Below, piece by piece: positions 7,640 to 62,587 of a DNA stretch of 64,000 bases. The notes below the pieces were generated by a model, which was not told where the DNA came from, made no database searches, and saw only the letters and a list, made by a program, of their open reading frames with translations. The DNA is from a virus. The DNA lies in the IMG/VR virus record IMGVR_UViG_3300018916_000001, positions 87,200 to 151,199 of that record; one strand, 5' to 3'. A program made the position numbers and the translations under genes. Position 1 is the first letter of the stretch; the number at the start of each line of letters is the position of its first letter.

Positions 7640-8122
7640 ATGAAAAGTCAGAATATAGCTAAGATAAATCCAATAATAGATATTACTTCTCCTGTACTTC
7701 TTCAATGTAAGAGTGGAGAATGCGGTAGTTGTCCTAACAATACTGGTAAAATGCTTTGGATACTAGGAGAGATAAGCAACATTGCTTTTAACTTTAGATA
7801 TAATTTCTTTGACAAAAGTGCAGAAAGTACAAGTAGTATTAGATATAACTTAGCTACTGGAACTATAAATGGTTCTAGCGTTAGTTACTCTAATAGACCG
7901 GATAAAGCTTGGGCAATAGCTAATACAACGATAACTTCTAGTCCAAATCTTACCCCATCTTCTATGTCTGGGTATTCTACTTTATCTCATTCCTTTGCTG
8001 TTCCTAGCAGTGGAGGATGGTTATTCTTCAGACAACCTAATCCAGCTATTAGTAACATTCATGACGCTTTATGTTTTGAATATAACCATGAAAGACGATT
8101 GATTACTTTTCGTTCGTTTTAA
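7640..8122 (+). CDS. Hypothetical protein
   Basis: ORF in the structural operon. Confidence 0.45.
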   Translation: MKSQNIAKINPIIDITSPVLLQCKSGECGSCPNNTGKMLWILGEISNIAFNFRYNFFDKSAESTSSIRYNLATGTINGSSVSYSNRPDKAWAIANTTITSSPNLTPSSMSGYSTLSHSFAVPSSGGWLFFRQPNPAISNIHDALCFEYNHERRLITFRSF

Positions 8123-8388
8123 CTACCATGTAAACTGTCCCAAATATCTACTTTTCTTTGTAGATTTAATAGGAGCTGAGTAGAAACTCCTAATCTAAGG
8201 TCAACCTCTACAGCTAAAAGATAAGTTATAGGTCTTGTACCTAGTAATACCTCTCTAAGTTTTAGGTTACTTTTACTAACCTCATTTATACTAATTCCTC
8301 TATCTTCTAGAATATCTACTAAAATAGAACCAGGATGTAGAGGTTTTACTTTTCTCTGCATTATGTTAGTTACAAAATTCACACACAT
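8119..8388 (-). CDS. higA: HigA-family (XRE HTH) antitoxin-like protein, orphan
   Basis: PLHPGSIL..ILEDRGIS..EVLLGTRPIT..LA..L..LGVSTQLLLNLQ..DIW matches the HigA/VapI pattern. Confidence 0.8.
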   Translation of the reverse strand: MCVNFVTNIMQRKVKPLHPGSILVDILEDRGISINEVSKSNLKLREVLLGTRPITYLLAVEVDLRLGVSTQLLLNLQRKVDIWDSLHGS

Positions 8389-8400
8389 AAATAATTTCCT

Positions 8401-11400
8401 ATGAATGACGACTTAATAGTTCAAAAGATTCTTAAGCTATTAGAGAACAACGCTGCTTTTATTGGTTATGCCCTTAACGGTGGAATTGGAACTAAGATAA
8501 ACGTCAGAAATACTGAGACAGGAAAAACTATTCAAGCTCTTAGTATTAATGTAGATTCTAGCGGGGAAGTTTTAGTTGTTAAAGATTCCGATGACGGTCA
8601 GTATAAAGCAGTTACATTCAAAGCAGCAGAACAAGTAACTGAAAGAATCATTCAGGTAAGAAAGACTAAGCCTGTGGATGACAAAAAAGTTATTGAATAT
8701 ACAGATTCAGATATTGAAGTGTTTTATCTCTTTATCAAATTAATAGATACTGGTAGTCCTGTTTCTACTCAACTAACTTCTACTTGGATTAGAAAAGGTA
8801 GCTCATGTACTCAATTTGTTGGAGCGTATGAGAGATGTAATTATGCTGCTAGAGATACTATTGAAGGAACTTCTTATATGGGTTTGCCTTATAAACCTTA
8901 CTCAAGTTTAAATGATTGTCTTAACGACGATTTAGGCAGAGATGCTAAAACTCCTCATGGGACAGGGGATGAGCAAGGTTTAGGAGCAGGATTTAAAATA
9001 TACTCTACTAGAATGACTTCGGATGCAGAACAAGCATTACAAGCTGCTTTAATCTCTCATGACAATTACTACGGAACTAATTTTAGAAAACTATTTGGTT
9101 ATGGAAGTATTTTAGAATGTTCTGGAGGAATGTTTGTTGTAGGATGGGAATCTGGATATGCAAGCCCAACACCAGAACAACAAGCTTTAGGTCAGTCAGG
9201 TACCTATTTTACTCGCTGCGAATTTAGTTATTTGCCTGGATACACAAATGATTGTACTATTGCACAACAAAATGCTAGATATTGCGATACAAGAGGGTTT
9301 ATTAATAGTAAAGCTCCTCTTTTTGGTCAAGAAGAACCTGGACAACCTAGTTTAAATCAAGTTGACAATACTTGGGGACATCAATATGGTTGGGTAGATT
9401 TGTCTTACGACTTTATGTATAAGAGACACTTTATACCTTCCTATGTTAATGGAGCTGCTGCACAAGGTAGCTTTTTAATCTTAGAAGTAAATGATGACCA
9501 AACACCTACTATTCCAGAAGGTTATTTCCCTTGGACTCCTGGTTGTCCTAGTAACTTAGGAGAAGGAGGCCCATATAATGGAAGTGGAGGTAACAGGTTT
9601 CCAGATGGCCCACCAAAACTAAAAAAAAGAGATATGAAACTCTCTACTCATAAAGCTGAAATTTGGTTGGGAAGCAGTAAAAAAGAAGAAGCAATTAAAC
9701 TATATGAGTTAGGTGCAAGTGACTTATTTTCTGGGATGTACAACGCCTTTATTTTAGCAGCTAACGAAACTCAAGTAGATATAGAAAATAGACTAAGAAG
9801 AAACTTTGCAATTAGTGAAGAAGACCAAGCAAAACATATTAAATTTTATGAAAACTGCAATAAAAACATTATTGATTTAAGAATTGACCCTAGAGTTTGG
9901 GTTTACATTTTAAATAACGTTCCTCTAAGTAACTATGTTACTCCTAGTATAGACGGAATTTTTACAGACCCTAGAAACCGTTCTTTACAACAAATCGTAG
10001 ATAACTTATATAACAGAACTATTAATTTAACAGTAGTAGATAATAAAACACAAGTTGTACATTTAAAACTAGGACTAGAACCAAAAAGTGTTCTTAGTAA
10101 TACTGATTGTAAAGGAACAAAGTCAGGTAATCTCCCTATAAGTGCTAACGATTTAACACCTAATCAAAGTTGGGAATATAGGAAATACGTAACTATAAAA
10201 ATAAAAAACTGGCAAATAGAATCTACTTCTAACACTTTAGATACTACTTTAATCCCAAATACAACGTGGAATAAACAGTATATAGAAAGGAAATTTTTTA
10301 CTTCTTTTGGGAGCCTTATTTACAATGCTAGTGGAGGAGTTGGTACTGGTAATAGCGAGAGAGATGTTGCAAATAATATATTGCTTAGACCTAATAACGA
10401 TATTTCTTTTATAGGCTTAACTTCTGGAAACAACTATGAACAATACAATTACAGTCAAGCTAATAATCCTACAAGTAGTAGCGTTTTTACCCCTATGATT
10501 TTCTTTGTTAATAGCAGCACTTTTTTAGCTAAAAATACTTCATCTGGGGATAGTCAACGACGAGTTTTACTATCTACTTCTAGTTGGTGGGCTTTATGGG
10601 ACAGAAGTATCTTAGACTCTACTAAAAAGAGATTAAGTTCTGTAGTAGGGTATGAGAGAAATATTTATCAAATACTTACAAGTTATGGGTTAGACCCTAA
10701 TTTAAACTACACAAGTATTAGTAATAACAGTCATATTAGTAATAGAACTTACTTTGATTATGTTCTTAACAGACCTAAACTATTAGTACCTTCTAATATT
10801 AAAAGTGTAAGAAATAAGCTAGTACCAGTAACTAATGATAATAGCTTTACAGCTTTATCTACTAGAAAAAATACTCTTAATGCTTACGGATTAAATTTCT
10901 ACTATACTTATCATCTTACTTCTTGGTCACAGTATCGTTTAAGTGGTAGATTAGATAATATTACGGTTCCTAACTTAGGTGTACTGTCTCCTTTTTATGG
11001 AAATTCTAATTTAAATACTCACAATACGAGAGAAAGTGTTTTGGCTATAAATACTGATTCTGGTAGTTATGTGTCCACTCGACGATTAGATACTAATCAA
11101 TGGTTTAATAATTTTTGGGCGCAATTAATATTTGACGGTTCTATTAAAGTAGATGTGGATTCTTATAAAAATGTAGAATTTAATCCTCCTACTAATCCAA
11201 CACGATATATTAAATACGCTACTAATCAACTTAATTCTAATAATGAGTATAGCTTTGTCTTAGATAAAGTACAAAATTTAGAAACCGTCCTTACTCCCGG
11301 AGTTCTAGATATTACTAAACAAGTTCCTATTAAAAAGCCCACTAATGTAGAGCTAGACCCTAATATGTCTTTCCTAGTGTATTTATTTCCATTCGTTTCT

Positions 11401-11815: not shown

Positions 11816-12301
11816 TTATCTCTTTAATTGGCTATGAATCTTTTCGTCTTCTCTTATAGTAGATAATATTTTAATATCTAACTTATATAGAGAATTTTTA
11901 GTGATATAGCTTAGAAACTTAACTAGATACAAAAGAAGTGAGTAATATGAATAAGCTATCTTCTCTCCATTTTGTACAAATCTTAGTAAATCTCTTGTAG
12001 AATAGCTAGATGCAGTTTTTCCTCTAAAGATTATGTAAAATAATGGATTTCTTATAGATAACTTATTATTTACTTTCTTTTTCTCATTTTTATATTGTAT
12101 AGACTCTACTAGATATTTAGAGGGTATAATTTCCTCTCGTTTATCTAATAGAGAATACAACATCTTAGAGTGTTTCTTTTCTTCTATAGATAACTGATTA
12201 AAGAAGTTAGAATACTCATCATTTCTACTAGATATCTTTTTATAGAAGTTAGATAGTGCATATTCATAATTAGCTAGTTTTCGATATATAAGACTTAACA
12301 A
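11816..12301 (-). CDS. Ferritin-like (rubrerythrin-type) diiron protein
   Basis: Paired E..(x)..ExxH pattern: EYALSNFY..EEKKH / EKIAYSYY..DEKIH. Confidence 0.7.
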   Translation of the reverse strand: MLSLIYRKLANYEYALSNFYKKISSRNDEYSNFFNQLSIEEKKHSKMLYSLLDKREEIIPSKYLVESIQYKNEKKKVNNKLSIRNPLFYIIFRGKTASSYSTRDLLRFVQNGEKIAYSYYSLLLYLVKFLSYITKNSLYKLDIKILSTIREDEKIHSQLKR

Positions 12302-14060
12302 AACTTTTAAACTTATTAAAGATTACTCTCATTATAAATTTAAAGTCTAAATCTTGTATATTATCTAAACTAAAATTCTTAAAAGAAAGATAGTAACAGA
12401 ATAATCTAGTAAAACTCCTCTTGTATTCTTCTCTATCTACCACATATCTCTGAAGTATCTTTTTACCTATAGATACTAAATCTCTTTTATTACTGGAGAG
12501 TGAATCGTTTAGTCTTCTATAAGTTACTATATAGTCTTTCGTACATTTGAAAGTTGCTACTTGAGACAGTTGAATAAGAAAATCCCAATCTTCACATACA
12601 TTATAAGCTGTACAAAATTCTATATCATTCTCTCTAATTACTTCTGTTTTAATGAAGAGATTAGAACCACATCCTAAGAAGTTATATTGAATAGCATCTT
12701 TAAAGACATCTCCATTACAAATTTTAGCTTTACTTTTAGTTACTATATCTCCTCTCTTATCTAGAACTCTACTATAAACACAATCTACATAAGGATATCT
12801 CTTAAATGTCTCAACGGATTTCTCTACTAATTGAGAATCCCAAGTATCATCTGCATCACAAAATGAGATAATGTCTGTACATAAAGCTAATCCTTTATTT
12901 CGTATAAAAGAAACACCTTGATTACATTCATATTTAAGTAAAGAAAACCTATCTCTTATATCTTCACTTAAACAACCTATAAATCTCTGGGATATCTCAT
13001 AACTTCTATCTGTACTAGCATCATCTATAATTACTACTCTAATATTTTTATATGTTTGATTAGCTATAGAAGATAATGTTTCTTCTATATAATCTTCCTT
13101 ATTATAAAGAGGTACTACTACATAAACTTCAGGTATATAATCTTTTAAAGAACTATTTTTGACAACACCTTTATTTAGATAAAATTGATAATCTAACTTC
13201 TTTTTATTAACTACTAAATCATATATAGTTTCTTTAGTTATTGGATGCTCAAAGCAGTTCTTTATATAATCAAATCTTTCTCTATATCTTTTACTAAAGC
13301 CCTCTTCAATTTGTTTAGATATATTCTTATCTCTATTAGATTCGACTTCTTCTGTAGTTTTTAATATATTCTCGTGATGTTGTTCATTACCTATATTAGG
13401 AATTACTTTTAATGTGTTTTCTATCCTACCATTTATAAGATATTGAATGTCTGCTTCAATATACAGTGAGTTTAATAAAGATTCTAGAGTTTTATATGGA
13501 TTCTCAGTTAGTTCTCTATAAGTAATACAAAAACTATAAGGAATGATAGTCGTATCATTGTACCAACTTACTTTTACTGAGTTCTCTAGTATATCTTTGC
13601 CATATACATATTTCTTAACTATAGAAGTATTAGGTTCATTTCTCTTAGAGATTAAATGTATATATATTTCTACTAGAGATTCTTCGTACTTTTCACAAGC
13701 TCCTAGTAAATCCATTTCTCCAAATAGCTCTAAATTATCTTTACTAGCTTTTAATATAGATAATACAGTAGGTATAGGAGGTCTTACGATGTATATAACA
13801 TAAATATCTCTCTTACATAATTTTCTCAGTTTATCAATATCTTCTAGATAAAGAGCGTGGCAAGGTGTCTTCTCTATAAGTATTCCCTCATTAAAAGAAT
13901 CTAAATAAGTTGCTAACTCTTCTAATGTCTTTACTCTATTACTAAGAAGTTTACTCTCATATAAAATCTTAGTATTAGGTAATCCACACAAATAAGAAAG
14001 TAATAATGTACTTCCTGATCTACCCGCACCTACTATAAATATCAGTTTTTTGTTACTCAT
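12270..14060 (-). CDS. Sulfotransferase + GT2 glycosyltransferase fusion
   Basis: N-terminal IFIVGAGRSGSTLL..EKTP (PAPS-binding loop); C-terminal VVVPLYN..IIDDASTD..FCDADD..EDWDF. Confidence 0.85.
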   Translation of the reverse strand: MSNKKLIFIVGAGRSGSTLLLSYLCGLPNTKILYESKLLSNRVKTLEELATYLDSFNEGILIEKTPCHALYLEDIDKLRKLCKRDIYVIYIVRPPIPTVLSILKASKDNLELFGEMDLLGACEKYEESLVEIYIHLISKRNEPNTSIVKKYVYGKDILENSVKVSWYNDTTIIPYSFCITYRELTENPYKTLESLLNSLYIEADIQYLINGRIENTLKVIPNIGNEQHHENILKTTEEVESNRDKNISKQIEEGFSKRYRERFDYIKNCFEHPITKETIYDLVVNKKKLDYQFYLNKGVVKNSSLKDYIPEVYVVVPLYNKEDYIEETLSSIANQTYKNIRVVIIDDASTDRSYEISQRFIGCLSEDIRDRFSLLKYECNQGVSFIRNKGLALCTDIISFCDADDTWDSQLVEKSVETFKRYPYVDCVYSRVLDKRGDIVTKSKAKICNGDVFKDAIQYNFLGCGSNLFIKTEVIRENDIEFCTAYNVCEDWDFLIQLSQVATFKCTKDYIVTYRRLNDSLSSNKRDLVSIGKKILQRYVVDREEYKRSFTRLFCYYLSFKNFSLDNIQDLDFKFIMRVIFNKFKSFVKSYISKTS

Positions 14061-14061
14061 C

Positions 14062-14448
14062 TTAGAGAAAATCCTTATAATCTACTTTAAAATACTTACC
14101 TAAAACTTTAGCAATAGATCTATCTATCTCACGAATTTCATGTAAAATATCTCTAGTTAAACTATCACTTCCAATCACAGAAACTAAGTCTTCAAAAGTT
14201 AGCTCTAAATTTTCCATTAAAGCTTTTAAAAATTCTAAGGGTTCTAACTGTGGCAAAGGATAATGTTCATCTTCATACTCTTCGATTAAAAGAGATAAAA
14301 GATGTCCTACCATTTCATCTTCTTGAGTACGATTATCTCCAAATAGTAAAGATTCTACTAACTCTAAGTATTTGTCGTATTGTTCTTCAGATTCGATTTT
14401 CTTAGGAACAATCTCAGATAATTGAATGTATCTCTCTTGATAGAACAT
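14062..14448 (-). CDS. HigA-like (YgjM-type) antitoxin, orphan
   Basis: PKKIESEEQY..LLIEEYEDEHYP..PLEFLKALME..L..EDLVSVIGS..IL...R.I..AK.LG.YFKV. Confidence 0.8.
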   Translation of the reverse strand: MFYQERYIQLSEIVPKKIESEEQYDKYLELVESLLFGDNRTQEDEMVGHLLSLLIEEYEDEHYPLPQLEPLEFLKALMENLELTFEDLVSVIGSDSLTRDILHEIREIDRSIAKVLGKYFKVDYKDFL

Positions 14449-14452: not shown

Positions 14453-14848
14453 TTACTTCTTCCTAATAATCTTTGGATCTTCTGATTCTTCGTATCTACT
14501 AAATCCTAAGAAGTCACCTGAATCATGACTGAGATAAGGGTCAATCCAATTTACAAAGTTCTTTATCTCATTAGAATAGTTCTTTAAATTACAACGAATA
14601 CATAGAAAATACTGTTCTGCTATATCATCAAATCTTAGAGTAGAAATAGTATCAGCAGCAAAATAGTAACTATCACAAGTTAACATATATTGCCATCTCT
14701 CACTCTGACTAAATAAAGGATGTGAAGAAAGTGATATATTTACCTCCTCTATCTCGTGATAAATCATGTACTTTAGAATATCGATTATTCTCTTAGGAGT
14801 ATCTTTACGTAACCTAGCATTAAAATGAAACTCAGTGTACATTCCCAT
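14453..14848 (-). CDS. Phage hypothetical protein (MGMYTE start)
   Basis: ORF track; pattern familiar from phage hypothetical proteins. Confidence 0.5.
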   Translation of the reverse strand: MGMYTEFHFNARLRKDTPKRIIDILKYMIYHEIEEVNISLSSHPLFSQSERWQYMLTCDSYYFAADTISTLRFDDIAEQYFLCIRCNLKNYSNEIKNFVNWIDPYLSHDSGDFLGFSRYEESEDPKIIRKK

Positions 14849-16655: not shown

Positions 16656-17342
16656 CTAATGAATACTCCTCTCATTTTCTTTCTCCAGTAATTCTTCTAA
16701 CCAAGACTTAAATTCTTCTTTACTAAGTTCATCAAAAAACTCTCTAACATCTTTAAATTCTCTAAGCTCAGATTTAGGTGTATTGTGAAATTCTTCTATA
16801 ATTTCTCTCAAATGAGCTTGAAATTTAAAGTCATTATTTTCAACTTCATTTAACTTCTCATCAATTTCTTGTTCATTGTTTAAATCTTGTACTCCAATAC
16901 TTAAGAGATAATTCTTCCACTTCTCTTCTTCTACTTGTTCTTTATAGAGTTTAGCTTTTACTATTCTCTCCGCCATTTCTCTATTTCTTAGCTGATCAGC
17001 TTCTTCTCCACAAATAGAAGAGAGTCCAGAAGGTATATGAGTTACTTGTGCGTAATACTCAACTCTAGCTGTTTTCTGGTCTTTACCTTCTTGAGTATCT
17101 ATAAACTTACATTTAAGTTCTTTTGGGTCTATATAGAAATCATCAGGTTCTTCGTATATAAGATTTTCATACTCTTGACTTTTCTCCAAAATAAGTTTGT
17201 AGATGTTAGAATCTTTACTTATTAAATAGATTATCTCTACTCCATTATCAGTAATTAGCTCTTGTACTGGTCTAAAATTATAGTCTGTTGAAAGATTAGG
17301 ATTTTTACTACTGAAACATTCTACAAATATAGTTTCTATCAT
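16656..17342 (-). CDS. Protein with a degenerate peptide-chain release factor (RF-1) domain
   Basis: IDPKELK....GKDQ....VTHIPSGL...C.EE.DQLRNRE.A..I.KAKLY aligns with RF domain 3 but lacks GGQ. Confidence 0.7.
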   Translation of the reverse strand: MIETIFVECFSSKNPNLSTDYNFRPVQELITDNGVEIIYLISKDSNIYKLILEKSQEYENLIYEEPDDFYIDPKELKCKFIDTQEGKDQKTARVEYYAQVTHIPSGLSSICGEEADQLRNREMAERIVKAKLYKEQVEEEKWKNYLLSIGVQDLNNEQEIDEKLNEVENNDFKFQAHLREIIEEFHNTPKSELREFKDVREFFDELSKEEFKSWLEELLEKENERSIH

Positions 17343-18458: not shown

Positions 18459-19040
18459 TCAATCATTCTTTTCTTCTAACTCTCTTAGCTCTTTTTGTCT
18501 ATATCTAGGTAATTCATCATTATCGAAATTAACTTCATCACTGTAAAGACCCTCCAAGTGTTCCCATAAGTCAATAATTATTCTATCTTTCTCATTTTCT
18601 CTATATAAAAGCTTCCTAAATCTAGGAAACTCTTTCTTATACATTTTATAGAGCTTAAGATTATTATCAATGCTAAACTCTGTATTTACAATTCTATCGG
18701 CTAATTTAATAGTCAAAGCTGCATAATTCTCTCTAGTTTTTGGAGCTGTCTTCTCAAGTATTTCTTCTCTATTTTTACCTGGTTCATTGGTTAAATCAAA
18801 TACCATATCTGCTACTTCACTACCAAATACTGATTTAAGAAGCTCGTAAGTAACAGGAGTATCTTCTAATGAATCATGTAACCAAGCACCAGAAAGTACA
18901 ATACCATCTTTTATACCAAACTCCTGTAAAGTTAGAACTACCTCTTCTAGATGTTTTGTATAAGGTAACTCCCCATAAAACTGATTTTTATGTACCAATC
19001 TAGCAAATAACTCTGCTTGTTCACTTAATAGCATTTTCAT
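18459..19040 (-). CDS. Small alarmone hydrolase (RelA/SpoT HD domain, Mesh1-like)
   Basis: H.NQ...PY..HL.EV, WLHDSLEDT, FGSEVADMV..LT, IKLADRI.N. Confidence 0.85.
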   Translation of the reverse strand: MKMLLSEQAELFARLVHKNQFYGELPYTKHLEEVVLTLQEFGIKDGIVLSGAWLHDSLEDTPVTYELLKSVFGSEVADMVFDLTNEPGKNREEILEKTAPKTRENYAALTIKLADRIVNTEFSIDNNLKLYKMYKKEFPRFRKLLYRENEKDRIIIDLWEHLEGLYSDEVNFDNDELPRYRQKELRELEEKND

Positions 19041-19323
19041 TTAATTTCTCTATATCTAATAACTTTGTGTTCAAGTAATCTAAACTGCACTTAGTTTGCT
19101 TTATTTGTCTTTCTAAATATTCCTTCTCTCTTATAAGAAAAACATCTACCTCTTTCTTCATCTTATCTATTAGCTGTTCTACTGTATCAGCGTAATGTCT
19201 ATAAATATAGTAGTAAATATCTGAATTATAAATCTTACTATATAACGTACCTATTAACTTTTGGTTTTTCTTACTTTGACAAATAGTTATATAAAAGCCT
19301 TTATAGTTAATTTGAGTTCGCAT
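19021..19323 (-). CDS. HicB-like domain protein
   Basis: NYKGFYITI..LIG..ADTVEQLIDKMKKEVDVFL. Confidence 0.6.
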   Translation of the reverse strand: MRTQINYKGFYITICQSKKNQKLIGTLYSKIYNSDIYYYIYRHYADTVEQLIDKMKKEVDVFLIREKEYLERQIKQTKCSLDYLNTKLLDIEKLNENAIK

Positions 19324-20495: not shown

Positions 20496-20502
20496 AAAGT
20501 TA

Positions 20503-20934
20503 CTAATTCCTCTCTACTACTCTATTATCTATTTCAGTGTATATCTTAGGTGGAGGTAACAATTCCGGTACATAACCTATAACTCTTAAATCAACATTAT
20601 ATTTTTTAGCATTATCGATTGTATGTTTTGTACCTTTACTCGTCCCATTCCAGAAACAAATACAGTGAGTAGCATATTTCAACATTTCAATATTTCTTAC
20701 CATTCCAGCGCTTTTACCTTTTTCCCAATCAGGTATAAATTTCTTTACTTTATAATCTCTACTTTTAGCATAAGCTTCTCCTAACCTATCTGCACCTCTA
20801 GCACCACCAGATACAATTTCTACTTCACATTCTTCTTTTAAAATTTCTTCTAGATATCTATCAACTTCTCTATCTAATAGTTCTGGATTATTAAAATCTC
20901 TAGAACCTGCAATAATCAATTTTATGTCTACCAT
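20503..20934 (-). CDS. SLOG/YspA-like (DUF2493) protein
   Basis: IIAGSRDF, IVSGGARGADRLGE.YA, AGMVRN, FWNGTSKGT. Confidence 0.8.
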   Translation of the reverse strand: MVDIKLIIAGSRDFNNPELLDREVDRYLEEILKEECEVEIVSGGARGADRLGEAYAKSRDYKVKKFIPDWEKGKSAGMVRNIEMLKYATHCICFWNGTSKGTKHTIDNAKKYNVDLRVIGYVPELLPPPKIYTEIDNRVVERN

Positions 20935-21380
20935 TGTTTACCACTTTTATTGTAATTAACTAATTGATAATGAATATTCACTTGTTCTAATAGTTTATCA
21001 ATGTACTTCTCAAAAGAAGCTCTAACTCTTTCTATATTCTGTCCTTTAAAAGTAGGAGCTGCCATATTAGTACCAGGTAAACTACCTATTAATTTTCCAG
21101 AACTATCTTTACTAACTCTTAATTTAAAGTCTTTATAGGTAAGAATTATACTATTGCTTTTCTCTAACTCTTTCTGTTTCTCATAGTATTCCTTTAAGCC
21201 TTCATCTACTTTCTTTTCAAACACTTCTCTTAATTCTTTTACGGTTACTCCAGATACATCGTAATAAACACCACTAGCTACAGGAAAATATTTATTCTTT
21301 CTAATTCTTCCTATTAAATAATCATCAGAATGAACATAAACATCTAAAATAAAACCTAGATACTCTAATGTATTACTCAT
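20928..21380 (-). CDS. Tandem HicB-like domain protein
   Basis: LEYLGF..LIGRI..SGVTVKELREVFEKKVD and LTYKDF..LIGSL..FKGQNIERVRASFEKYID. Confidence 0.7.
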   Translation of the reverse strand: MSNTLEYLGFILDVYVHSDDYLIGRIRKNKYFPVASGVYYDVSGVTVKELREVFEKKVDEGLKEYYEKQKELEKSNSIILTYKDFKLRVSKDSSGKLIGSLPGTNMAAPTFKGQNIERVRASFEKYIDKLLEQVNIHYQLVNYNKSGKQW

Positions 21381-22350: not shown

Positions 22351-22503
22351 TTACTTAGTCTTATCATTAAAACCAAAAATATCCTCGTAGTTTTTAGCAG
22401 CTTTCTTAAGCGATTCATTAGGTTCGGGTGAGTTTTCTATAATTTCCCATAGTTGTTCTGCATCTTCTCTACTCAACCTAATAGACTTACTAGACTTTTC
22501 CAT
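22351..22503 (-). CDS. DUF1778 (TacA-type antitoxin) C-terminal fragment, 50 aa (not in ORF track)
   Basis: MEKSSKSIRLSREDAEQLWEIIENSPEPNESLKKAAKNY matches the DUF1778 tail (I.LS..D.......LENPPEPN..L..AA..Y). Confidence 0.7.
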   Translation of the reverse strand: MEKSSKSIRLSREDAEQLWEIIENSPEPNESLKKAAKNYEDIFGFNDKTK

Positions 22504-23993: not shown

Positions 23994-24000
23994 AATATTA

Positions 24001-40734: not shown

Positions 40735-41187
40735 TCAGTTAATTCTCTCATTATTTTCACCTTCTAGAATTTTATCTATATACTTTTCTCTTTCTCTTAG
40801 AGATATTGTGTATTCTATTTCTTCTTCTGATTTATCCAATCGAACTAATAAATCTCTTAGATTTTGCTTATTAAAAATACCAAACATATCTAAGCCTAGA
40901 GTTAAACTACTTGATTTATAAATATGTACAGCTTTATCTATATTCTCGATATCTTCTTCACTTAAATCGTCTATATAAATTCTTTTACTTAAAGATTTTT
41001 CTAAGTAATCAGAAACTTCTTTACTATCTTCTAAAACTACATCTGTAAGAAAATAATCTGTTTTATATAGAGAAATATAATCTGCAAGGCACAAAATCTT
41101 ATAAATATCTCTTTTATCTATATCCACTACATAATAAATCTCTTCCCATAGATAGGAAGATGCAGCTAACAATTTGGTCTTATTCAT
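40735..41187 (-). CDS. Panacea (DUF4065/SocA)-like antitoxin, internally shortened
   Basis: KTKLLAA..YL..IDK..IYKILCLADYISL..LT....LSEEDIENIDKAV..Y. Confidence 0.55.
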   Translation of the reverse strand: MNKTKLLAASSYLWEEIYYVVDIDKRDIYKILCLADYISLYKTDYFLTDVVLEDSKEVSDYLEKSLSKRIYIDDLSEEDIENIDKAVHIYKSSSLTLGLDMFGIFNKQNLRDLLVRLDKSEEEIEYTISLREREKYIDKILEGENNERIN

Positions 41188-43358
41188 TTTTTCTCATTCC
41201 AATTAGTAAAAGTTAAATGATTTGGATCAAAATCTACGTCTACCGGAATACTTTTAATCCAATAGCCTAGTTCTTGATGTAAAATCCTCATTACACAACT
41301 ATTAATTTCATAGCTATATTTTCTTAATCCAATCCAGTTAAGCTCATCATGGCAGTTGTTACAAAAACGAGCTTTCCAATGAGGATTCTTATAAAACTCA
41401 ATTAATATTCGACCTTGAGCGAACTTTAATATATCTGCTTCACCACAAAGCCAGATGAGAGAAATAGATTCTGTATAAGGAATCTCAAACTTAGTTCCCC
41501 AATCACTTATCTTTTCTTGTTTCTTTAAATGGACAGTACGATTAGTAAAAGTCTTACATTTACCATAAACTCCTTCAGTAGGTTGTCCATAGAGATTGTA
41601 AAAAGGGAATTGTATATTATAAGAGTTTGATTCTTTTATATAGTTTTGAATAAATTGATCTAATCTTTTATAAGTTTCTTTATATGCCTTCTTAATTAAT
41701 TTAGCTTGGTCAAGTGTAATATCTACTCCCCAACCTTTAAATGTCTGCTGTAACTTATAAGCTCCGGCTTGATTGAGTCCTGAATAATTAGCTATCTTCC
41801 CCCATTTTCTATAAGAATCTACTTGACTATCTTTCTCTTCTTTATATAATCTTTGAAACTCATCAAAAGAAACGCTACTACCATTAAGCTTGATTATTGT
41901 ATGCGCCATAATTAAATGGGCATCTTTATCATTTAAATAAATATCTAGTAGAACTGGGTCTTGAGAAAGTTCAGTACAAATTCTATAGTGAGACGCAGAT
42001 AAATCAATAATCCCTAAAAAATAATCATCGGGAGCAGCAAAGAAAGTTCTAAACGCTGGTAAACCTTCCTCTTTAAACCAACTAGGAGTTTTAGCTGGAT
42101 TTTGAAGTTGAGTACCAATATCTACTTTCTTTCTACTACCTTTACTATTTTTAAAACTTAAAGTACCAGTACAACTACTTCTTCCACTACCCGACGCTGA
42201 GATTTGATTATAAATTGTTCGTACTGAATAAAAATCCTCATTCTTATTCTTCCAAGATGTATTATTAATTCCCTCCATATAGTTGATAAGAACATTTAAC
42301 GTTCTCATTCTAAGTAGAGCTTCAGCTTCAGGATATTGAACTGATTTTAAAGCTTCATCATTCATTGATCCTAAATTAAGTTCTGGCCATTTAGTGTTAA
42401 AAGCTTGTCTTAATAACTCTACTTGTCCCCAATTTATACCTGGAAAGCTGTCAGTAATTATTTTGTTATATTCTTCAAATTTAGTTTTGCATAAAGCTAT
42501 ATTTGTCTCTAATAAACTCTTATCTATAGGAAATCCATAAACTTCCATTTGAATAAAAGCAGATAACGCTAAACATTCTGCCATTACGGAGTAGTATAAG
42601 TTCTCTCTTACTACTAACTCTTGAATATATGGATAAAGTTGAAGAGGTAGTATTGAGTCATTACCTGAATAATTATATTTTGAATTAGTTATCCTCCATC
42701 CCCAATCTTCTTTCTGTTCTGTCTTATCTACAGTGAAAATAGTAGAGAATAATATATTGACTCTTTCGGTAATAGCTTTAAGTGAATGTCCCAACAAACA
42801 TCTATCACTTCTAGCTTTAACTCTAGAACTTCCAGATATCGTCTTTTCTTTTGTACTAATAACTTCAATACCTGCCCACAACACTTGAGAGCAAAGCATT
42901 AAATCTCTACAATTAAGTAGTTGAATATCAAAGTGATAAAGTAAGAATCCTCCATCAAACTTTAAATTCTGTCCTACTACTGGAACGTCTATGTCTTCAC
43001 ATTTAATCTTGAGTAATCTGTAAAATCTAGAACTAAGAAACTCTTCTCTCTTCTTCTCTATATCGTCTAAGTTACCTCCTAAATCATATACAAGAGCGTA
43101 ATATTCAAACTCATTCTCTCTTACTTCTACTTTAATAGATACAGATATTAAACGTATTAAACCAAATCTAAAATATAATGCAGAATATTCCTCTTCTCCA
43201 TGAGTTTCAAGGTCTAATCCGAATATAGTAGAAGATTCAAATAAGTCTAAATATTTATCCCATTCTTTCGGAGCTACTTTATTTTCTACTATAATATTTT
43301 CTTCTAGAGGAACATCTACTTCTAAGATATCTCTCCATGTAAGTTGTCTAGTTTTCAT
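41184..43358 (-). CDS. Family A DNA polymerase with 3'-5' exonuclease
   Basis: ExoI LDLET, ExoII QNLKFD, ExoIII YSGND; SGRSS..LQN; motif A DLSASHYR, motif B RKWGKIANY, motif C HDEL. Confidence 0.9.
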   Translation of the reverse strand: MKTRQLTWRDILEVDVPLEENIIVENKVAPKEWDKYLDLFESSTIFGLDLETHGEEEYSALYFRFGLIRLISVSIKVEVRENEFEYYALVYDLGGNLDDIEKKREEFLSSRFYRLLKIKCEDIDVPVVGQNLKFDGGFLLYHFDIQLLNCRDLMLCSQVLWAGIEVISTKEKTISGSSRVKARSDRCLLGHSLKAITERVNILFSTIFTVDKTEQKEDWGWRITNSKYNYSGNDSILPLQLYPYIQELVVRENLYYSVMAECLALSAFIQMEVYGFPIDKSLLETNIALCKTKFEEYNKIITDSFPGINWGQVELLRQAFNTKWPELNLGSMNDEALKSVQYPEAEALLRMRTLNVLINYMEGINNTSWKNKNEDFYSVRTIYNQISASGSGRSSCTGTLSFKNSKGSRKKVDIGTQLQNPAKTPSWFKEEGLPAFRTFFAAPDDYFLGIIDLSASHYRICTELSQDPVLLDIYLNDKDAHLIMAHTIIKLNGSSVSFDEFQRLYKEEKDSQVDSYRKWGKIANYSGLNQAGAYKLQQTFKGWGVDITLDQAKLIKKAYKETYKRLDQFIQNYIKESNSYNIQFPFYNLYGQPTEGVYGKCKTFTNRTVHLKKQEKISDWGTKFEIPYTESISLIWLCGEADILKFAQGRILIEFYKNPHWKARFCNNCHDELNWIGLRKYSYEINSCVMRILHQELGYWIKSIPVDVDFDPNHLTFTNWNEKK

Positions 43359-43635
43359 TATTACTAGCTAAATAACTATCTACCGTTCTCCAAAAATCTC
43401 TAGCATATTGATAAGGTGACTCTCCTATTACAAATAGATCTAAATCTTCTTCATTCAAATAGATATATCCTGAATAAGGAGCATTATAACCATCATATAT
43501 TTTTTCGATTTTACAAGTAAACCCTTTATAATATAAATCTTGATTATGAAAGTTCTTTTGCCATTCTTCTCTTTCTTGCCAAGTCAAACTTATTAAATAT
43601 TCAAAAACATCTGTAGATTCTAAGTTCTTATTCAT
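43348..43635 (-). CDS. HicB-like domain protein
   Basis: YYKGFTCKIE..YSGYI..VIGESP....DFWRTVDSYL. Confidence 0.6.
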   Translation of the reverse strand: MNKNLESTDVFEYLISLTWQEREEWQKNFHNQDLYYKGFTCKIEKIYDGYNAPYSGYIYLNEEDLDLFVIGESPYQYARDFWRTVDSYLASNNEN

Positions 43636-44726: not shown

Positions 44727-45131
44727 TCATAAAATCTCCTCACTTTTATTTTGTAGCTCATTCCAAAAACGTGCAGACTCTTCCAATCCATTTATGTACT
44801 CTACAAACTGACGAACAATATCATCTGATGAATCCCCGCTAAATACCCATCCTCGACTAAAAGGTAAATATCCATACCAATCATTACTACCACCTTCTTT
44901 ACTAAGTTCTAGAGTCGCATTCTTATAATAAAAAACTTCTCTCTTTTGTTCTAAAAATTCATCGATATACTCCTCAAAATCATTAGCTAAATCAGTGAAA
45001 CTATCACTACCGATTTCTAATTCTAGGTCTTTGAAGTTCTCATTAGGTACTACTTTACCTAATATTACTAAGCAATCAGTATCTAAACTAACTTGTAATT
45101 GAAATCCTCTATAACTAATAATGTTTTCCAT
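44727..45131 (-). CDS. Tandem HicB-like domain protein
   Basis: ISYRGF..VSLDTD..VILGKV..SDSFTDLANDFEEYIDEFL and YYKNA..WYGYL..FSGDSSDDIVRQFVEYIN. Confidence 0.7.
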   Translation of the reverse strand: MENIISYRGFQLQVSLDTDCLVILGKVVPNENFKDLELEIGSDSFTDLANDFEEYIDEFLEQKREVFYYKNATLELSKEGGSNDWYGYLPFSRGWVFSGDSSDDIVRQFVEYINGLEESARFWNELQNKSEEIL

Positions 45132-56404: not shown

Positions 56405-56887
56405 TTATACTTCTAGTAGATTATCATTTAAAAAAAGGTGTAACTTAGCTTCTTCTGCTAACCATTGAGAAAAAGGAATACCAAGAGATTCACTCATAGG
56501 ATCTTCTCCTTCAGTATATTGGCACACTATAGGATCTGTATTATCAGGTGATAGTAAAGAGAAACACCAAAAAGTATAACCTTGGTGCATAAGAAAAGTG
56601 AAACAATACCACTCATGTCTTTCATCTTCTGGATAAGCTTCCTCTATTAGCTCCCAACTCCAATCTTGGATATCAATTATTTTGGGATATAAAAAATCAG
56701 AACCTCGAAGAAATCCTCCTGAATCTTTACCCATCCACAAAAGAAACTCTTTATAAGACTCGGGTAGAAAGACATTTAACTTTTTTTCTAGCTCTTGTAT
56801 CTCTTCCTCTGTACAACCTATAGTATTTAAGTCTTTTAAGAGATTCTTAGTCGTTTGTAAGTAAGTCATTCTAATCACCAAGGACAA
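56405..56887 (-). CDS. SMI1/KNR4 (SUKH) immunity-family protein
   Basis: GCTEEEIQELEKKLNVFLPESYKEFL..G; FLMHQGY; DP.V; FSQWL. Confidence 0.85.
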   Translation of the reverse strand: MSLVIRMTYLQTTKNLLKDLNTIGCTEEEIQELEKKLNVFLPESYKEFLLWMGKDSGGFLRGSDFLYPKIIDIQDWSWELIEEAYPEDERHEWYCFTFLMHQGYTFWCFSLLSPDNTDPIVCQYTEGEDPMSESLGIPFSQWLAEEAKLHLFLNDNLLEV

Positions 56888-57026: not shown

Positions 57027-57500
57027 TCATAGATAAATCTCCACATCATAAGGTTTATCAGCAAAATTACGGACTAAAATCTCTACTACATCTTTTTTAT
57101 CTAAGTTCCCACATCCACAACCTAACATTGGAATAGCTAGTAGTGGAGTAGGATACCAATCTTCATTATATTTTTCTTCTAATATCTCAACTAATTTCTT
57201 TACTCCTTTTTCTATCCACTCCAATTTACTATCTTGTGCTACTACCTCCTTAGTACAGAAATTAATAATATCTCTACTACCTTTAATTGCTTCTTCTGGT
57301 TTAGCTATATAGAAAATCAAATCGCCACCTTTAGGAGTAGAGACTTTACAATACTCATGATAATACTTAAAGTTAATTGGAAATCTATTCTTAAAGTCTA
57401 GAGCAAGTCCTTTACCTGAAATTCCTTTAGTATTTACAGGATTGACTAAATATTGAGCAGTAGAATCAAATATGTCACAGTTGTTCTTGTAGATAATCAT
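57027..57500 (-). CDS. Macro domain protein (DarG-like ADP-ribosyl hydrolase)
   Basis: DIFDS.AQYLVNPVNTKG.SGKGLA.DFK.RFP; IINF.TK; AIP.LGCG.GNL. Confidence 0.85.
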   Translation of the reverse strand: MIIYKNNCDIFDSTAQYLVNPVNTKGISGKGLALDFKNRFPINFKYYHEYCKVSTPKGGDLIFYIAKPEEAIKGSRDIINFCTKEVVAQDSKLEWIEKGVKKLVEILEEKYNEDWYPTPLLAIPMLGCGCGNLDKKDVVEILVRNFADKPYDVEIYL

Positions 57501-58064: not shown

Positions 58065-58430
58065 CTAGTCTTCAAAATCCTCTATTGGCTCGTCAAAATT
58101 TTCTGATATTGAAATAACCTCTCTATCACTACCAAATAAAGGTTTTCTACGTTTTTTACTTTCTTCTATCTTTTGTCTCATTAAGTCATTCCATAAGTCA
58201 CGTTCTTCATCCGATTCAAAACAATCCATATCGTCGTCTCCCCATTCTCTAACTTCTATTTTTCTACGCCATTCTAAGTTTTTTTCTAGAGATTTGAATT
58301 CTTCTAATATTTTTTCCAGTAAGTCGTCATAACTTCTAAGTAAGGATAGTTGATAAAAATAATCAGAAGCTTCAGTTACCTCTCGTTTAAGATTTTCTCT
58401 TTTCTCTTGAAATTCTTGATATTTAGTCAT
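58065..58430 (-). CDS. Coiled-coil protein ending in a DUF2281/Phd-type antitoxin tail
   Basis: C-terminus KKRRKPLFGSDREVISISENFDEPIEDFED. Confidence 0.65.
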   Translation of the reverse strand: MTKYQEFQEKRENLKREVTEASDYFYQLSLLRSYDDLLEKILEEFKSLEKNLEWRRKIEVREWGDDDMDCFESDEERDLWNDLMRQKIEESKKRRKPLFGSDREVISISENFDEPIEDFED

Positions 58431-59781: not shown

Positions 59782-60366
59782 CTACACTTTCTTTAATACC
59801 TCTAGAGCTTCTTTTGCAGATGTTTTTAGCTGAGCTTCATCAATATCAAACTCAGGATCGAATAAATCAGAATCGCCACAATAAGCATCTACATTACCAA
59901 ACAACTTGTCTAAAATTTGGAACTCTCTTTCTGAGTCGAAACTCTTATCACTCTTAAATAATTGTAGAAATTGTTGTTCAAATTCACTTGTAGTAATACG
60001 ATCAGCAAGAAAGTCTTCTAGTAAATTAATATACTTAGTCATATCTGTTTTTCCTCTCTTTACTACTATTAAACCTTGAAAGATGCACTCTAATTTCTCA
60101 TTAATATAGTCAACCATATAATCTGGAATGACCATTTGATTCCTTCCAGTATGAATGTTCTCTTCCCTGAAATCAATACCTCTTAGCTTATAGTTCTCCT
60201 CACAGATTTTAATGTACTCATTGATAATCCCAGTAAATTCAAGAAATGGATGACATTGAGTATTAGCAGCTAATCTGTAGAATGTATTACTAGCTTCTTT
60301 CATTAGCTCAATAGATTGTTCAGGAGTTAAAGTTAGATTAATTGAGTTCTCTTTTTTATTTAGCAT
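59782..60366 (-). CDS. Fusion: phage hypothetical domain + colicin D immunity-like domain
   Basis: C-terminal KYINLLEDFL..I...EFEQQFLQLFK....ILDKLF..VDAY..D....IDEAQL..A..L; internal ATG at 60042 with GAGGA upstream. Confidence 0.7.
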   Translation of the reverse strand: MLNKKENSINLTLTPEQSIELMKEASNTFYRLAANTQCHPFLEFTGIINEYIKICEENYKLRGIDFREENIHTGRNQMVIPDYMVDYINEKLECIFQGLIVVKRGKTDMTKYINLLEDFLADRITTSEFEQQFLQLFKSDKSFDSEREFQILDKLFGNVDAYCGDSDLFDPEFDIDEAQLKTSAKEALEVLKKV

Positions 60367-60368: not shown

Positions 60369-60884
60369 TTATTCTCCTCTACTTTTATTACCAAAATAAG
60401 CGACTTCTTCATCATAATTATGAAAACGTGGCTCACTAATACCTTCAGAAAGTATCTTATATCTGATTCCCTTAACCTCTGACACAGTAATAACACCTTT
60501 AGAATAAGGAAGAATTACTATATCTCCTACTTCTAATTCATCTATTCTTTTTGTTTTCTGCTCTTTCTTTTTAGAAAGTTCTAGTAAATTCTCACAAAGA
60601 GTAAGTAAATCATAGACTTGGTCAGTACCAAAAAACACTGCGGGTTCCTTCTCTAGTAGAGTTTTTAAGCGATTTAACTCTTTCTCTGGGTCTGATGTGG
60701 GAACTTTATTGCTCATAATTTCGTCTACAAACTTCTGAAAATCTTCTAGTGTTTCATCCCAAGTAATTAATTCACCTCTAGAAAAGCTTAACTCCTCACA
60801 TTCAGCTTTGACTAAAACCCCTCCTCTTTCTTCTGGAATTAAGACAAAACTTCTATATTCAACGGGTCGAAGATTATTTACCAT
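60369..60884 (-). CDS. HicB-like N-domain + SH3-like C-domain protein
   Basis: VEYRSFVL..AECEEL..TWDETLEDFQKFVDE; ELEVGDIV. Confidence 0.5.
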   Translation of the reverse strand: MVNNLRPVEYRSFVLIPEERGGVLVKAECEELSFSRGELITWDETLEDFQKFVDEIMSNKVPTSDPEKELNRLKTLLEKEPAVFFGTDQVYDLLTLCENLLELSKKKEQKTKRIDELEVGDIVILPYSKGVITVSEVKGIRYKILSEGISEPRFHNYDEEVAYFGNKSRGE

Positions 60885-60939
60885 TGACTTTCTCCTTATG
60901 TTTACAATACATCAATAGTCTCTAGCTTATTGCTACTAA

Positions 60940-62079
60940 CTATTTCTTGCTATCATATTCCATGTTCATAATCTTGCAACTTAATTTGTTATTATTTTTA
61001 GTCCTAACTACAATACCTTCTATTATCCAATTCTCAGTTTGTTTATAATTTTCAAATATCTCATTAGCTTTTGATATTAGTTCGTCGTAATTAGACGCGC
61101 TGATAGGTATTGGAGCTAGATAACTAATATCCATTTCCTCACAAATTTTCTTTACGTCATCTGGTAACAATCGAACTGCTCTACCAGTGTCTAAGTCGTC
61201 AATACCAAATATTTTAATAGACGGACGCATATGAGAATGTGGATTTAATTTGTTACCTGAACCTTTAGTAACTTCTAATCCATACATCTCACCTCTAAAA
61301 GCTAATTGTCTATTATTTTCTCTACAGAATTTCATTCCACGATCATATAAGCCAGTTGAGTGAGATAACCTAACCCATCTATCATCATTGTTTGGGTCGT
61401 CTACATCTTTCTTCTCTAAAACTCTACTGCAAATACCAGTAACTAATTCTCCTTCACTCTTCCTAAAATATTGAGTAAAAGAAGATCCATCTATTTTTAA
61501 AGTATAAACTAATTCTTCTCCAGCTTCTAATAAACGATTAATGTAAGATTTTATGTTAGCTGCGTTTTCCTCATCTGTTTTATATAGGAAACCAGGAAGA
61601 TTACCTTTAACTCTTCCGTTACCAAATCGTTCAGGTTCTTCATATTTCGTAATACTTAAGAATTCGGCTTTATCTTCTATATCATCTGGAATATTGGCTT
61701 CTTCAAAAGGTAATAAAATTCCGTTTGAATAGATGATGTCACAGCTATCCTCTCTAGTAAAATTAAATTTAATTGCTTTAATTCGGTTATTCTTTCCTAA
61801 CTTAGATTTCTTAGGATCACCATTTGGGGCAATGAAACTAGAGAATAATTTAGTATCCGGAACACAATAATCAGGTTGAATGTAAACTGCTTTATCTCCT
61901 ATTTGATATAAATCTTTCTGAGATACGATATTAAACCCACATTCATCGGTATAATTATTCTCTTCAGGGTTAAAGAAAGAGAAATTAATAAGCTCAATGT
62001 TAGTAGCGGGTTCTCCTGTACCTTTCTTGAATAATGGAGTTTTTGTAGTGATATTAACGATTTCTACTGGATTAATCAT
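60940..62079 (-). CDS. RNA ligase (DRB0094/Rnl2-like)
   Basis: KTDEE, motif I KIDGSS, CSR, FRGEMYG, EGIVVR, K at the C-terminus; N-terminal YQIGD.AVYI.PD. Confidence 0.85.
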   Translation of the reverse strand: MINPVEIVNITTKTPLFKKGTGEPATNIELINFSFFNPEENNYTDECGFNIVSQKDLYQIGDKAVYIQPDYCVPDTKLFSSFIAPNGDPKKSKLGKNNRIKAIKFNFTREDSCDIIYSNGILLPFEEANIPDDIEDKAEFLSITKYEEPERFGNGRVKGNLPGFLYKTDEENAANIKSYINRLLEAGEELVYTLKIDGSSFTQYFRKSEGELVTGICSRVLEKKDVDDPNNDDRWVRLSHSTGLYDRGMKFCRENNRQLAFRGEMYGLEVTKGSGNKLNPHSHMRPSIKIFGIDDLDTGRAVRLLPDDVKKICEEMDISYLAPIPISASNYDELISKANEIFENYKQTENWIIEGIVVRTKNNNKLSCKIMNMEYDSKK

Positions 62080-62401
62080 AGTTCTTAGTCTCCGTTAAAT
62101 TAAACTAAATAAGCTTTTACAGAGTTAATTAATTGTTCGCAACTTAATGATTGAAGTAGAGTATTAGCAGCTTGTACTCCTCTTTCTCCTGCATATTCCA
62201 ATTTCCTTGCACTATAATACGGATTTTCTTTCTTTAGCATAGAGATTGTATTAGCTGGTCTTTGTAGGAAGATATCTCTACTCTCATCTTCAAAAGCTCC
62301 TATATAAACTCCTTCATCATTATAAATAGAGATAGAAGTTATATATTCATTAGTCTCTACTACAAAAGAGTAAGCAATATCATCTACTACTATACTTCTT
62401 C

Positions 62402-62587
62402 TCATACAGGATAACTCCTATTTAATATATCTCTTAGATTTTCTATCTTCTGAATTATCTTTGGAGTAAAATGAATCTTCTTACACTTCTCACATACAAA
62501 ACCAGAAATCTTAAAGTTTCTACTAGATATCTTCTTTAATACTGATTTTTGTAGTAATGTACCTCCACAAGTAGAACATAAGCTCAT
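62402..62587 (-). CDS. YgiT/MqsA-type Zn-finger domain, stand-alone
   Basis: CSTCGG.L....ISGFVCEKC....FTP....KIE. Confidence 0.6.
   Translation of the reverse strand: MSLCSTCGGTLLQKSVLKKISSRNFKISGFVCEKCKKIHFTPKIIQKIENLRDILNRSYPV

Follow-up and report, generated by a model that had tools for sequence, protein, structure and literature searches.

A set of antitoxin- and immunity-like genes without matching toxin genes in an uncultured 151-kb phage, and its probable use against host toxins

Why would a phage carry the antidotes to many bacterial toxins and none of the toxins themselves? The question is raised by bases 87,200-151,199 of IMG/VR virus record IMGVR_UViG_3300018916_000001, the 151,199-nt record of an uncultured 151-kb phage; this 64,000-nucleotide stretch is the whole of the DNA analysed here and is called the window. 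A sequence-only reading of it had proposed that about 28 small genes resemble antitoxins or immunity proteins, that none has a toxin gene beside it, that many of them retain the toxin-contacting part without the DNA-binding domain, and that the phage has thereby assembled a broad counter-defence library. Around 23 of these genes are supported by the tools that we used, ten of them outside the HicB-like group and at the level of sequence. Given about two dozen antitoxin- or immunity-like genes and no matching toxin gene, we conclude that the genes are probably used to disarm the suicide or defence toxins of the host. The reading that we prefer, with a probability of roughly 0.55, is that this toxin-less, multi-family set, encoded in the early/middle gene block, is made during infection and neutralises host toxins that would otherwise abort it.

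Some 100 open reading frames (ORFs) of the window were scanned singly against Pfam, and key ORFs were also compared with NCBIfam, PHROGs and PDB sequences (Table 1). These Pfam scans of single ORFs returned no toxin family. The entire record was also searched in six frames, at E <= 1, with hidden Markov models (HMMs) of 11 toxin families, and the same searches were positive in control genomes. There were zero matches in the whole record, be it to HicA (PF07927), DarT (PF14487), GNAT (PF00583), the RelA_SpoT synthetase domain, colicin D (PF11429), the colicin E3 cytotoxic domain (PF09000), PIN, the VapC toxin domain (PF01850), or ParE/RelE and two HigB families (PF05015, PF05016 and PF09907, sought as partners of HigA); MqsR, Doc/Fic, MazF, CcdB, Zeta, HipA and other GNAT families lay outside this search. 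The statement that the antitoxin-like genes lack toxins is thus borne out for 11 families across the 151-kb record. For comparison we used a sister phage, represented by two contigs of JGI sample 3300000095 (65 kb and 34 kb), which is syntenic with positions 1-60 kb of the window at about 85-95% protein identity.

Table 1. Antitoxin-like, immunity-like and context genes of the window, with the matches on which each assignment is based (positions are those of the window; aa, amino acids; HTH, helix-turn-helix).
Feature	Length (aa)	Position	Strand	Evidence
HigA-1, orphan HigA-family HTH antitoxin homolog	89	8119..8388	-	TIGR02607 E 1.8e-9; PDB 3CEC E 1.4e-12; phrog_1381
HigA-2, E. coli K-12-type HigA homolog	128	14062..14448	-	PDB 5IFG/5YCL E 0.0018; phrog_1373 E 2.4e-7
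RF-1 (GGQ peptidyl-tRNA hydrolase) domain protein, context gene		16656..17342	-	PF00472 E 4.9e-9
Stand-alone small alarmone hydrolase (RelA/SpoT HD domain)	193	18459..19040	-	TIGR00691 E 1.4e-11; HD_4 E 3.7e-6; phrog_990 E 1e-34
HicB-N-like, divergent member		19021..19323	-	hhalign vs A3 P 1.1e-5; hmmsearch E 0.058
HicB-N-like, two divergent copies		20928..21380	-	hmmsearch full-sequence E 6.6e-5; hhalign P 4.9e-6
TacA/DUF1778 C-terminal (toxin-binding) tail alone	50	22351..22503	-	Pfam TacA1 PF08681 E 1.1e-6
HicB-N-like		29779..30258	-	domain E 1.2e-11
Thg1-like 3'-5' nucleotidyltransferase, context gene		30272..31021	-	PF04446 E 2.6e-30; Thg1C E 2.3e-12
HicB-N-like, single	53	31026..31187	-	domain E 4.8e-16
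HicB-N-like, tandem double	110	31198..31530	-	domains E 2e-14 and 4.5e-12; no Pfam, NCBIfam or PHROG match
HicB-N-like, single, the modelled member	55	31609..31776	-	AlphaFold2 (AF2) model, predicted local distance difference test (pLDDT) 92
Claimed XRE-antitoxin N-helix		32667..32903	-	unsupported; 94% identity in sister phage
HicB-N-like, double, helical C-terminus	183	33785..34336	-	two domains E ~1e-15 each; absent from sister phage
HicB-N-like, divergent	71	34494..34709	-	hmmsearch E 8.6e-4; hhalign P 1.6e-5; BLAST paralog of 33785-34336
HicB-N-like, marginal	98	34739..35035	-	hhalign vs A3 P 1.9e-4
Colicin E3/cloacin immunity-like	93	34995..35276	-	PF03513 E 9.6e-8 (32.7 bits vs cut-off 25); DUF7683 E 1.3e-6
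Cloacin immunity-like paralog	79	35447..35686	-	DUF7683 E 3.5e-4; BLAST paralog of 34995-35276
Possible Panacea (SocA/DUF4065)-like	150	40735..41187	-	Atlas feature score 0.95; hhalign P 0.0084
HicB-N-like, marginal	95	43348..43635	-	hhalign vs A3 P 3.7e-5
HicB-N-like, double divergent	134	44727..45131	-	hmmsearch E 5.4e-8; hhalign P 1.5e-7
SUKH-1 (SMI1/KNR4) immunity-type protein	160	56405..56887	-	PF09346 E 1.7e-13 (51.7 bits vs cut-off 25.4); SUKH_6 E 2.5e-10
DarG-type macrodomain without DarT-binding domain (AdfM-like)	157	57027..57500	-	NF048014 E 1.3e-34; PDB 5M3I E 3e-17; 5M31 E 1.7e-14
Acidic helical N-part and VapB (DUF2281-type) C-terminal tail	121	58065..58430	-	NF050009 E 1.8e-7; Pfam DUF2281 E 0.004
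Phage-specific N-domain and colicin D immunity domain	194	59782..60366	-	PF09204 E 2.6e-17, residues 111-191
HicB-N-like with C-terminal extension	171	60369..60884	-	domain E 2.6e-11; directly upstream of colicin D immunity gene
RNA ligase, context gene		60940..62079	-	PF09414 E 3.9e-10
Claimed MqsA zinc finger; generic CxxC...CxxC zinc ribbon	61	62402..62587	-	MqsA TIGR03830 E 0.037; YgiT finger TIGR03831 E 0.021

Two members correspond to nothing but the toxin-binding tail of an antitoxin family. The DUF1778 tail proposed earlier matches TacA1 above the Pfam cut-off (28.9 bits against 21), over profile positions 44-79 of 80 only; as the protein has just 50 residues, the positions that bear the ribbon-helix-helix (RHH) domain (1-43) are absent. 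The DUF1778 antitoxins of the PDB (7ZG5, 6GTQ, 6AJM, 1Y9B and 5ZGN) match it through their C-terminal parts. No GNAT toxin gene adjoins it, its neighbours being the genes for DHFR and for an HTH_3 protein. A predicted complex of the tail with Salmonella TacT1, taken from Swiss-Prot as a stand-in, scored 0.03, which gives no verdict and is counted neither way. The second tail, predicted as DUF2281, makes up the last 37 residues (85-121) of its protein and matches profile positions 24-63 of 65 of the VapB family NF050009 at 31.6 bits against a cut-off of 60; the DUF2281 match is likewise below its cut-off, and the N-terminus is unrelated to VapB. The assignment as a VapB tail is a probable one, with scores below the curated cut-offs. 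The homolog in the sister phage aligns over residues 1-82 only, leaving out the VapB tail.

The two HigA-like proteins are of another kind. Both are supported by their families (TIGR02607 and 3CEC, and 5IFG/5YCL, respectively) and both are essentially full length, so that the trimming suggested for the set fails for them. A TIGR02607-type HigA is defined by an XRE-type HTH with an N-terminal HPGE motif and a score above the family cut-off; HigA-1 reaches 37.3 bits against the curated 47.7. It aligns with 3CEC over residues 11-87, with an HTH region that is four residues shorter, and its PHROG is annotated 'plasmid antitoxin with HTH domain'. The genes of its two nearest bacterial homologs (40-42% identity), from metagenome-assembled genomes of Oscillatoriales and Blastocatellia, lie directly behind a canonical HigB ORF of 90-92 aa. 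HigA-2 aligns by residues 17-122 of 128 to positions 20-131 of 5IFG/5YCL, which covers both the N-terminal helical part and the C-terminal HTH, at a modest E value. The gene is an insertion relative to the sister phage, where the 131-aa gene found upstream of HigA-2 in the window (14453-14848) directly abuts a glycosyltransferase gene. In the window this glycosyltransferase gene (12270-14060) encodes 596 aa that combine a family-2 glycosyltransferase domain with an N-terminus resembling sulfotransferases, and adjoins a gene for a rubrerythrin-like protein (11816-12301); the sister phage adds an R2K ATP-grasp gene there. The 131-aa gene was considered as a hidden HigB-like toxin and rejected, as its product has no match to a RelE-like fold: the AF2 model (pLDDT 91) gave weak matches, to ferredoxin-like and ABM folds only. 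With more than 400 metagenome homologs at about 60% identity and many invariant residues, it is a widely conserved phage protein.

These neighbourhoods bear on the possibility that the genes are partners of the phage's own toxins of unrecognised fold, whether effectors packaged in the head or injected, or toxins for superinfection exclusion, in which case they would form complete pairs and not be orphans. The HTH_3 gene directly downstream of the TacA tail (21435-22295) encodes 286 aa, with an N-terminal XRE HTH (HTH_3 E 4.6e-12) and a 230-aa C-terminal part without a family, and in the sister phage the tail again lies just upstream of such a gene (275-286 aa). This conserved pairing speaks for self-immunity, as do the many adjoining small ORFs without a recognisable family. 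We nevertheless consider it unlikely, because no homolog of a cognate toxin family occurs anywhere in the genome among the families searched, the modules are scattered without consistent pairing, and the 131-aa protein, widely conserved and without a RelE-like fold, has no HigA beside it in the sister phage.

Two further members are enzymes. The macrodomain proposed as DarG-like covers positions 4-146 of the 338 of the DarG profile NF048014, scores above the cut-off of Pfam Macro, and aligns its VNxVN and TK motifs with those of the DarG proteins of Mtb (5M3I) and Taq. The C-terminal DarT-binding domain is missing and no DarT gene is adjacent, so that of the earlier claim the macrodomain stands and the trimming runs the other way, the protein having retained its enzyme domain and lost the one that binds the toxin. 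By its sequence the protein would fit the pattern of AdfM rather than that of a full DarG2. AdfM, a DarG2-like macrodomain of chimalliviruses, removes DarT2 marks from phage DNA and so counters DarTG2 (PMC13309987). Like AdfM, the protein of the window is a stand-alone phage macrodomain that resembles bacterial DarG macrodomains most closely and comes without a DarT gene or a DarT-binding C-terminal domain; it differs in belonging to an unrelated phage lineage and in being one of a much larger set. The alarmone hydrolase was also recognised correctly as a RelA/SpoT HD protein, its TIGR00691 match falling in the N-terminal hydrolase part and its HD_4 score exactly at the cut-off. Stand-alone phage alarmone hydrolases neutralise all toxSAS toxins tested (PMC7229694). 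Those of PVP-SE1 and SSU5 are, as here, single-domain RelA/SpoT HD proteins of phages without a synthetase (toxSAS) gene, the protein of the window being placed by its HD domain.

The immunity proteins named in the sequence-only reading (two of colicin E3 type, one of colicin D type and a SUKH protein) could all be located. The larger colicin E3/cloacin immunity-like gene lies in a block without counterpart in the sister phage, which has one copy elsewhere at 36% identity; its paralog is recognised through DUF7683 and BLAST only. The colicin D immunity domain scores 63.6 bits against a cut-off of 22 and follows an N-terminal part that matches phrog_37280 (E 1.3e-26); the C-terminus of this protein has an 85% identical counterpart at the end of a sister contig.

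By number the set is dominated by a family of domains of about 50 aa, which had been described as 13 HicB-like genes. The paralog family is real and was found, by BLAST, an iterated local HMM and a wider profile, in 12 ORFs of the window; its likeness to HicB is one of fold and of profile-profile comparison only. The consensus is Y-x-G-Y-x-L-x-I ... G-x-C-x-E-L ... F-K-x-x-V-D, and the domains occur singly, as tandem doubles and, outside the window, as five copies in one protein. The wider profile, of 113 copies, was built after 1.84 billion representative proteins had been searched exhaustively; only 88 clusters among them carry the domain, many with 2-5 copies. Against the family profile A3, eight control ORFs scored P >= 0.013 with hhalign, the scale on which the marginal and divergent members of Table 1 are to be read.

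The AF2 model of a single-domain member has four strands followed by one helix, and the fold so predicted is HicB-N-like. It superimposes on the UPF0150 protein 2YZT with a template modelling (TM) score of 0.71 and on HicB of B. pseudomallei (6G1N) with 0.67 (root-mean-square deviation 1.8 over 48 columns), and ESM Atlas clusters of HicB, DUF1902 and PF05534 match it at TM 0.63-0.71. The HicB N-domain 6G1C is found at a VIA Z of 5.3, a structural Z below 8 being one that can reflect a common arrangement, and several other HicB and UPF0150 entries are among the neighbours. With hhalign, the 113-copy profile aligned to 30 bona fide PF15919 HicB N-domains from bacterial genomes over 47 columns in colinear order with a probability of 75% (P 2.5e-5); none of 16 controls, 15 with shuffled columns and one reversed, fell below P 0.086. 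Remote homology of the family to HicB is therefore likely. The phage domain shares the strand-strand-strand-helix core of the HicB antitoxin N-domain (6G1C/6G1N; PF15919/PF05534; UPF0150/DUF1902), but it has an extra N-terminal strand, lacks the fourth strand after the helix, and carries a signature of its own (Y-x-G-Y, a conserved Cys and F-x-x-x-V-D). In contrast to HicB, the family has no Pfam-level match, reaches five copies per protein, and shows neither a DNA-binding domain (no C-terminal RHH or HTH was detected) nor an adjacent HicA gene. Binding of HicA by these domains would follow by analogy with HicB.

The remaining candidates of the sequence-only reading fared less well. A Panacea-like protein is possible: 24 of its 30 language-model feature matches in the Atlas fall in clusters carrying PF13274, and hhalign aligned it colinearly with 36 bacterial PF13274 domains at a probability of 5%, shuffled controls scoring P >= 0.14. 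It has no Pfam match at E <= 1 and no NCBIfam match, and a word-index homolog search returned only itself and the sister copy (87% identity). The supposed MqsA zinc finger is a generic zinc ribbon without an HTH, whose best matches are DUF7479, LIM and ECs_2282 and whose TIGR03830 and TIGR03831 scores are far under the cut-offs. For the supposed XRE-antitoxin N-helix there was no Pfam or NCBIfam family beyond chance. The general claim of trimming, that the proteins lack the DNA-binding domain and keep the part that contacts the toxin, clearly holds for the TacA tail, the VapB tail and the HicB-N-like domains only.

Are these genes maintained, or are they leftovers? Seven of them have a counterpart in the sister phage, namely HigA-1, the TacA tail, the alarmone hydrolase, the macrodomain, the SUKH gene, the colicin D immunity C-terminus and the possible Panacea-like gene; the sister phage lacks HigA-2, the VapB tail and a block (33785-35276) that holds HicB-like proteins and the cloacin immunity gene. 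Pairwise ratios of nonsynonymous to synonymous substitution rates (dN/dS) for the antitoxin and immunity genes were 0.12-0.46, against 0.03-0.08 for portal, helicase and Sak. The values were 0.12 for the macrodomain (92% identity), 0.18 for the hydrolase (93%), 0.27 for the TacA tail (78%), 0.29 for SUKH-1 (67%) and 0.46 for HigA-1 (55%, with the same shortened HTH); the double divergent HicB-like gene at 44727-45131 gave 0.10 (84%). The GC content of the antitoxin and immunity genes equals the phage mean, and a recent capture from the host is unsupported. From the ratios, the sister-phage comparison and the GC content we conclude that these are functional, faster-evolving accessory genes with turnover, and neither fresh captures nor debris. 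Decay of captured toxin-antitoxin (TA) or immunity cassettes into remnants without present function, which the truncated TacA and VapB forms and the four-residue deletion in the HTH of HigA-1 might suggest, is very improbable on these values; moreover, all the ORFs are intact and lie in one orientation within a dense block, and the tail-only TacA and the shortened HigA-1 are kept in the same form by the sister phage.

From about 11.6 kb to the end of the window almost every gene is a small one on the minus strand, closely packed with its neighbours, and the antitoxin-like genes are interspersed with genes of replication and nucleotide metabolism (DNA polymerase A, ThyA, DHFR, Dam, RuvC and the Sak annealing protein). 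The G+C content of the record is about 31%. No close relative was found by megablast and tblastn against cultured phages, and the DNA polymerase I of this phage shares only about 21% identity with those of Gordonia and Nodularia phages. The thymidylate pathway differs between the two phages, with ThyA, DHFR and a CYTH protein in the window (22607-24699) and Thy1 (ThyX) and dUTPase in the sister phage (L088 2864-3436, L087 3272-3979). In the sister phage a ribonucleotide reductase-like protein of 1166 aa, which includes intein and LAGLIDADG domains, is encoded by a single ORF (L007 1257-4757), to whose two ends separate ORFs of the window (38309-40027 and 36345-36908) correspond. A cluster of DUF4326, Dam methyltransferase and SLOG/YAcAr genes (19326-20934) is kept in the sister phage; the three families have been associated with conflict systems that involve nucleotides or ADP-ribose. 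Genes for an RF-1/GGQ protein, a Thg1-like enzyme and an RNA ligase (Table 1), together with that for the CYTH protein (24001-24699), lie among the antitoxin-like genes and may form a repair kit for tRNA and ribosomes against nuclease toxins.

If the set neutralises host toxins, it would do so in three ways. Whole binding proteins (the two HigA types, the colicin D and E3 immunity proteins, SUKH-1 and possibly Panacea) would act as stoichiometric inhibitors. Minimal pieces (the TacA C-tail, the VapB tail and the HicB-N-like domains, often in tandem) would fill toxin active sites without binding DNA. Enzymes would undo the products of toxins, the DarG-type macrodomain by removing ADP-ribose from DNA and the alarmone hydrolase by degrading (p)ppGpp or (p)ppApp or by dephosphorylating tRNA. 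The targets of most matching toxins are tRNA, rRNA or mRNA. Taken with the RNA ligase, Thg1-like and RF-1 genes of the same block, this raises the prospect that the common theme may be protection of the translation apparatus. A further-reaching version, which we put forward tentatively, is a general shield against abortive infection (Abi): a library of minimal toxin-binding peptides and multivalent sponges derived from tandem HicB-N domains, directed at diverse translation-targeting toxins and backed by enzymes that reverse products and repair RNA, which would leave the phage pre-armed against many TA, Abi and nuclease effectors.

Several points weigh against neutralisation of host toxins as the role of the set. 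Its members are assigned by sequence and predicted structure, and several scores (HigA-1, the VapB tail and DUF2281) are below curated cut-offs. The ends of the record are identical over 127 nt (genome 1-127 = 151073-151199), as expected of an assembler overlap of a circular or terminally redundant genome, which suggests a complete circular assembly; CheckV nonetheless puts its completeness at 49%, and the absence of toxins therefore holds strictly for this record only. The HicB-N-like domain has no Pfam, NCBIfam, PHROG or PDB sequence match, its 17-copy and 113-copy profiles giving chance matches only against PDB sequences, and unrelated small alpha/beta domains match its model equally well (Z 5-7), the fold being a common arrangement.

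The same observations could be accommodated if the genes were a mixed bag: ordinary accessory genes whose roles are unrelated. Phage HigA-like HTH proteins may be plain transcription regulators, as the annotation of the PHROG of HigA-2, 'transcriptional regulator', and the position of HigA-1, a lone minus-strand gene inside a plus-strand late-gene block, would suit. Macrodomains and HD hydrolases also have roles outside defence, here perhaps in nucleotide metabolism or host takeover. The HicB-N-like family might do something else, such as binding RNA or protein during takeover, and its model matches, at comparable Z, double-stranded RNA-binding domains, RF-1 domains and inhibitor proteins of phages as well. 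SUKH and colicin immunity families are defined by interbacterial toxin systems and have no established link to anti-phage defence, so that a decoy directed at TA systems, as the set was first described, is too narrow an account of them. They might instead guard the infected cell against the bacteriocins or contact-dependent toxins of its neighbours, in the manner of the orphan and poly-immunity loci known in bacteria (PMC3482391). Such loci resemble the present genes in holding SUKH, colicin D and E3/cloacin immunity genes without toxins; here the genes are in a phage and dispersed rather than arrayed, and their targets may be defence effectors or rival bacteria.

We judge a mixed bag doubtful for three reasons. 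One phage combines at least ten distinct families of antitoxins or immunity proteins, none of them with a toxin; two members are cut to the toxin-binding tail alone and could not act as regulators; and three of the module types are experimentally proven counter-defences in other viruses (PMC13309987, PMC7229694, PMC11065993). Neutralisation of host toxins is the preferred reading, and as a counter-defence library the set is consistent with gene content, toxin absence, purifying selection, conservation and variation in the sister phage, and these precedents. By analogy with those systems it is plausible that the set is aimed at host defence toxins and that it binds or neutralises them at all.

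Two further precedents show what sets the phage apart. The orphan NADAR protein AdfN of T-even phages counters DarTG1, and the idea of an orphan antitoxin is explicit in that work (PMC11825919). AdfN is likewise a phage antitoxin homolog without a toxin that serves to reverse TA defence, but it has another fold, no NADAR protein was identified here, and it is of the enzymatic type IV only, whereas the present set also has binding-type pieces of type II. A precedent for binding antitoxins is SMV1 gp44, an orphan viral homolog of Phd by which host Doc is neutralised (PMC11065993); T4 Dmd, which the same paper cites, is again a virus-encoded, toxin-less, protein-binding antitoxin against abortive infection by a host TA system. 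Here the families are HigA, TacA, VapB and HicB-like, two members are tail-only and one family stands in tandem arrays. No paper that we found describes such a multi-family, toxin-less set in one phage. Taken singly, each element is of a known kind; what is new is the combination, in one phage lineage, of about ten unrelated families with tail-only type II antitoxins, bacteriocin-type immunity domains and a private, tandem HicB-N-like family.

Orphan antitoxin counter-defences have so far been shown one family at a time, as with DarG-like enzymes, alarmone hydrolases and an archaeal viral Phd. About ten unrelated families in one phage would point to the neutralisation of toxin effectors as a major and multiplexed component of phage anti-defence. 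The set would offer a small natural panel of inhibitors of TacT-, VapC-, HigB-, HicA-, colicin D/E3-, DarT- and toxSAS-type toxins, and its tail-only forms would reveal the minimal natural unit for toxin neutralisation. Were the general shield to hold true, a modular library of toxin-binding peptides and tandem HicB-N sponges would be new kinds of viral counter-defence.

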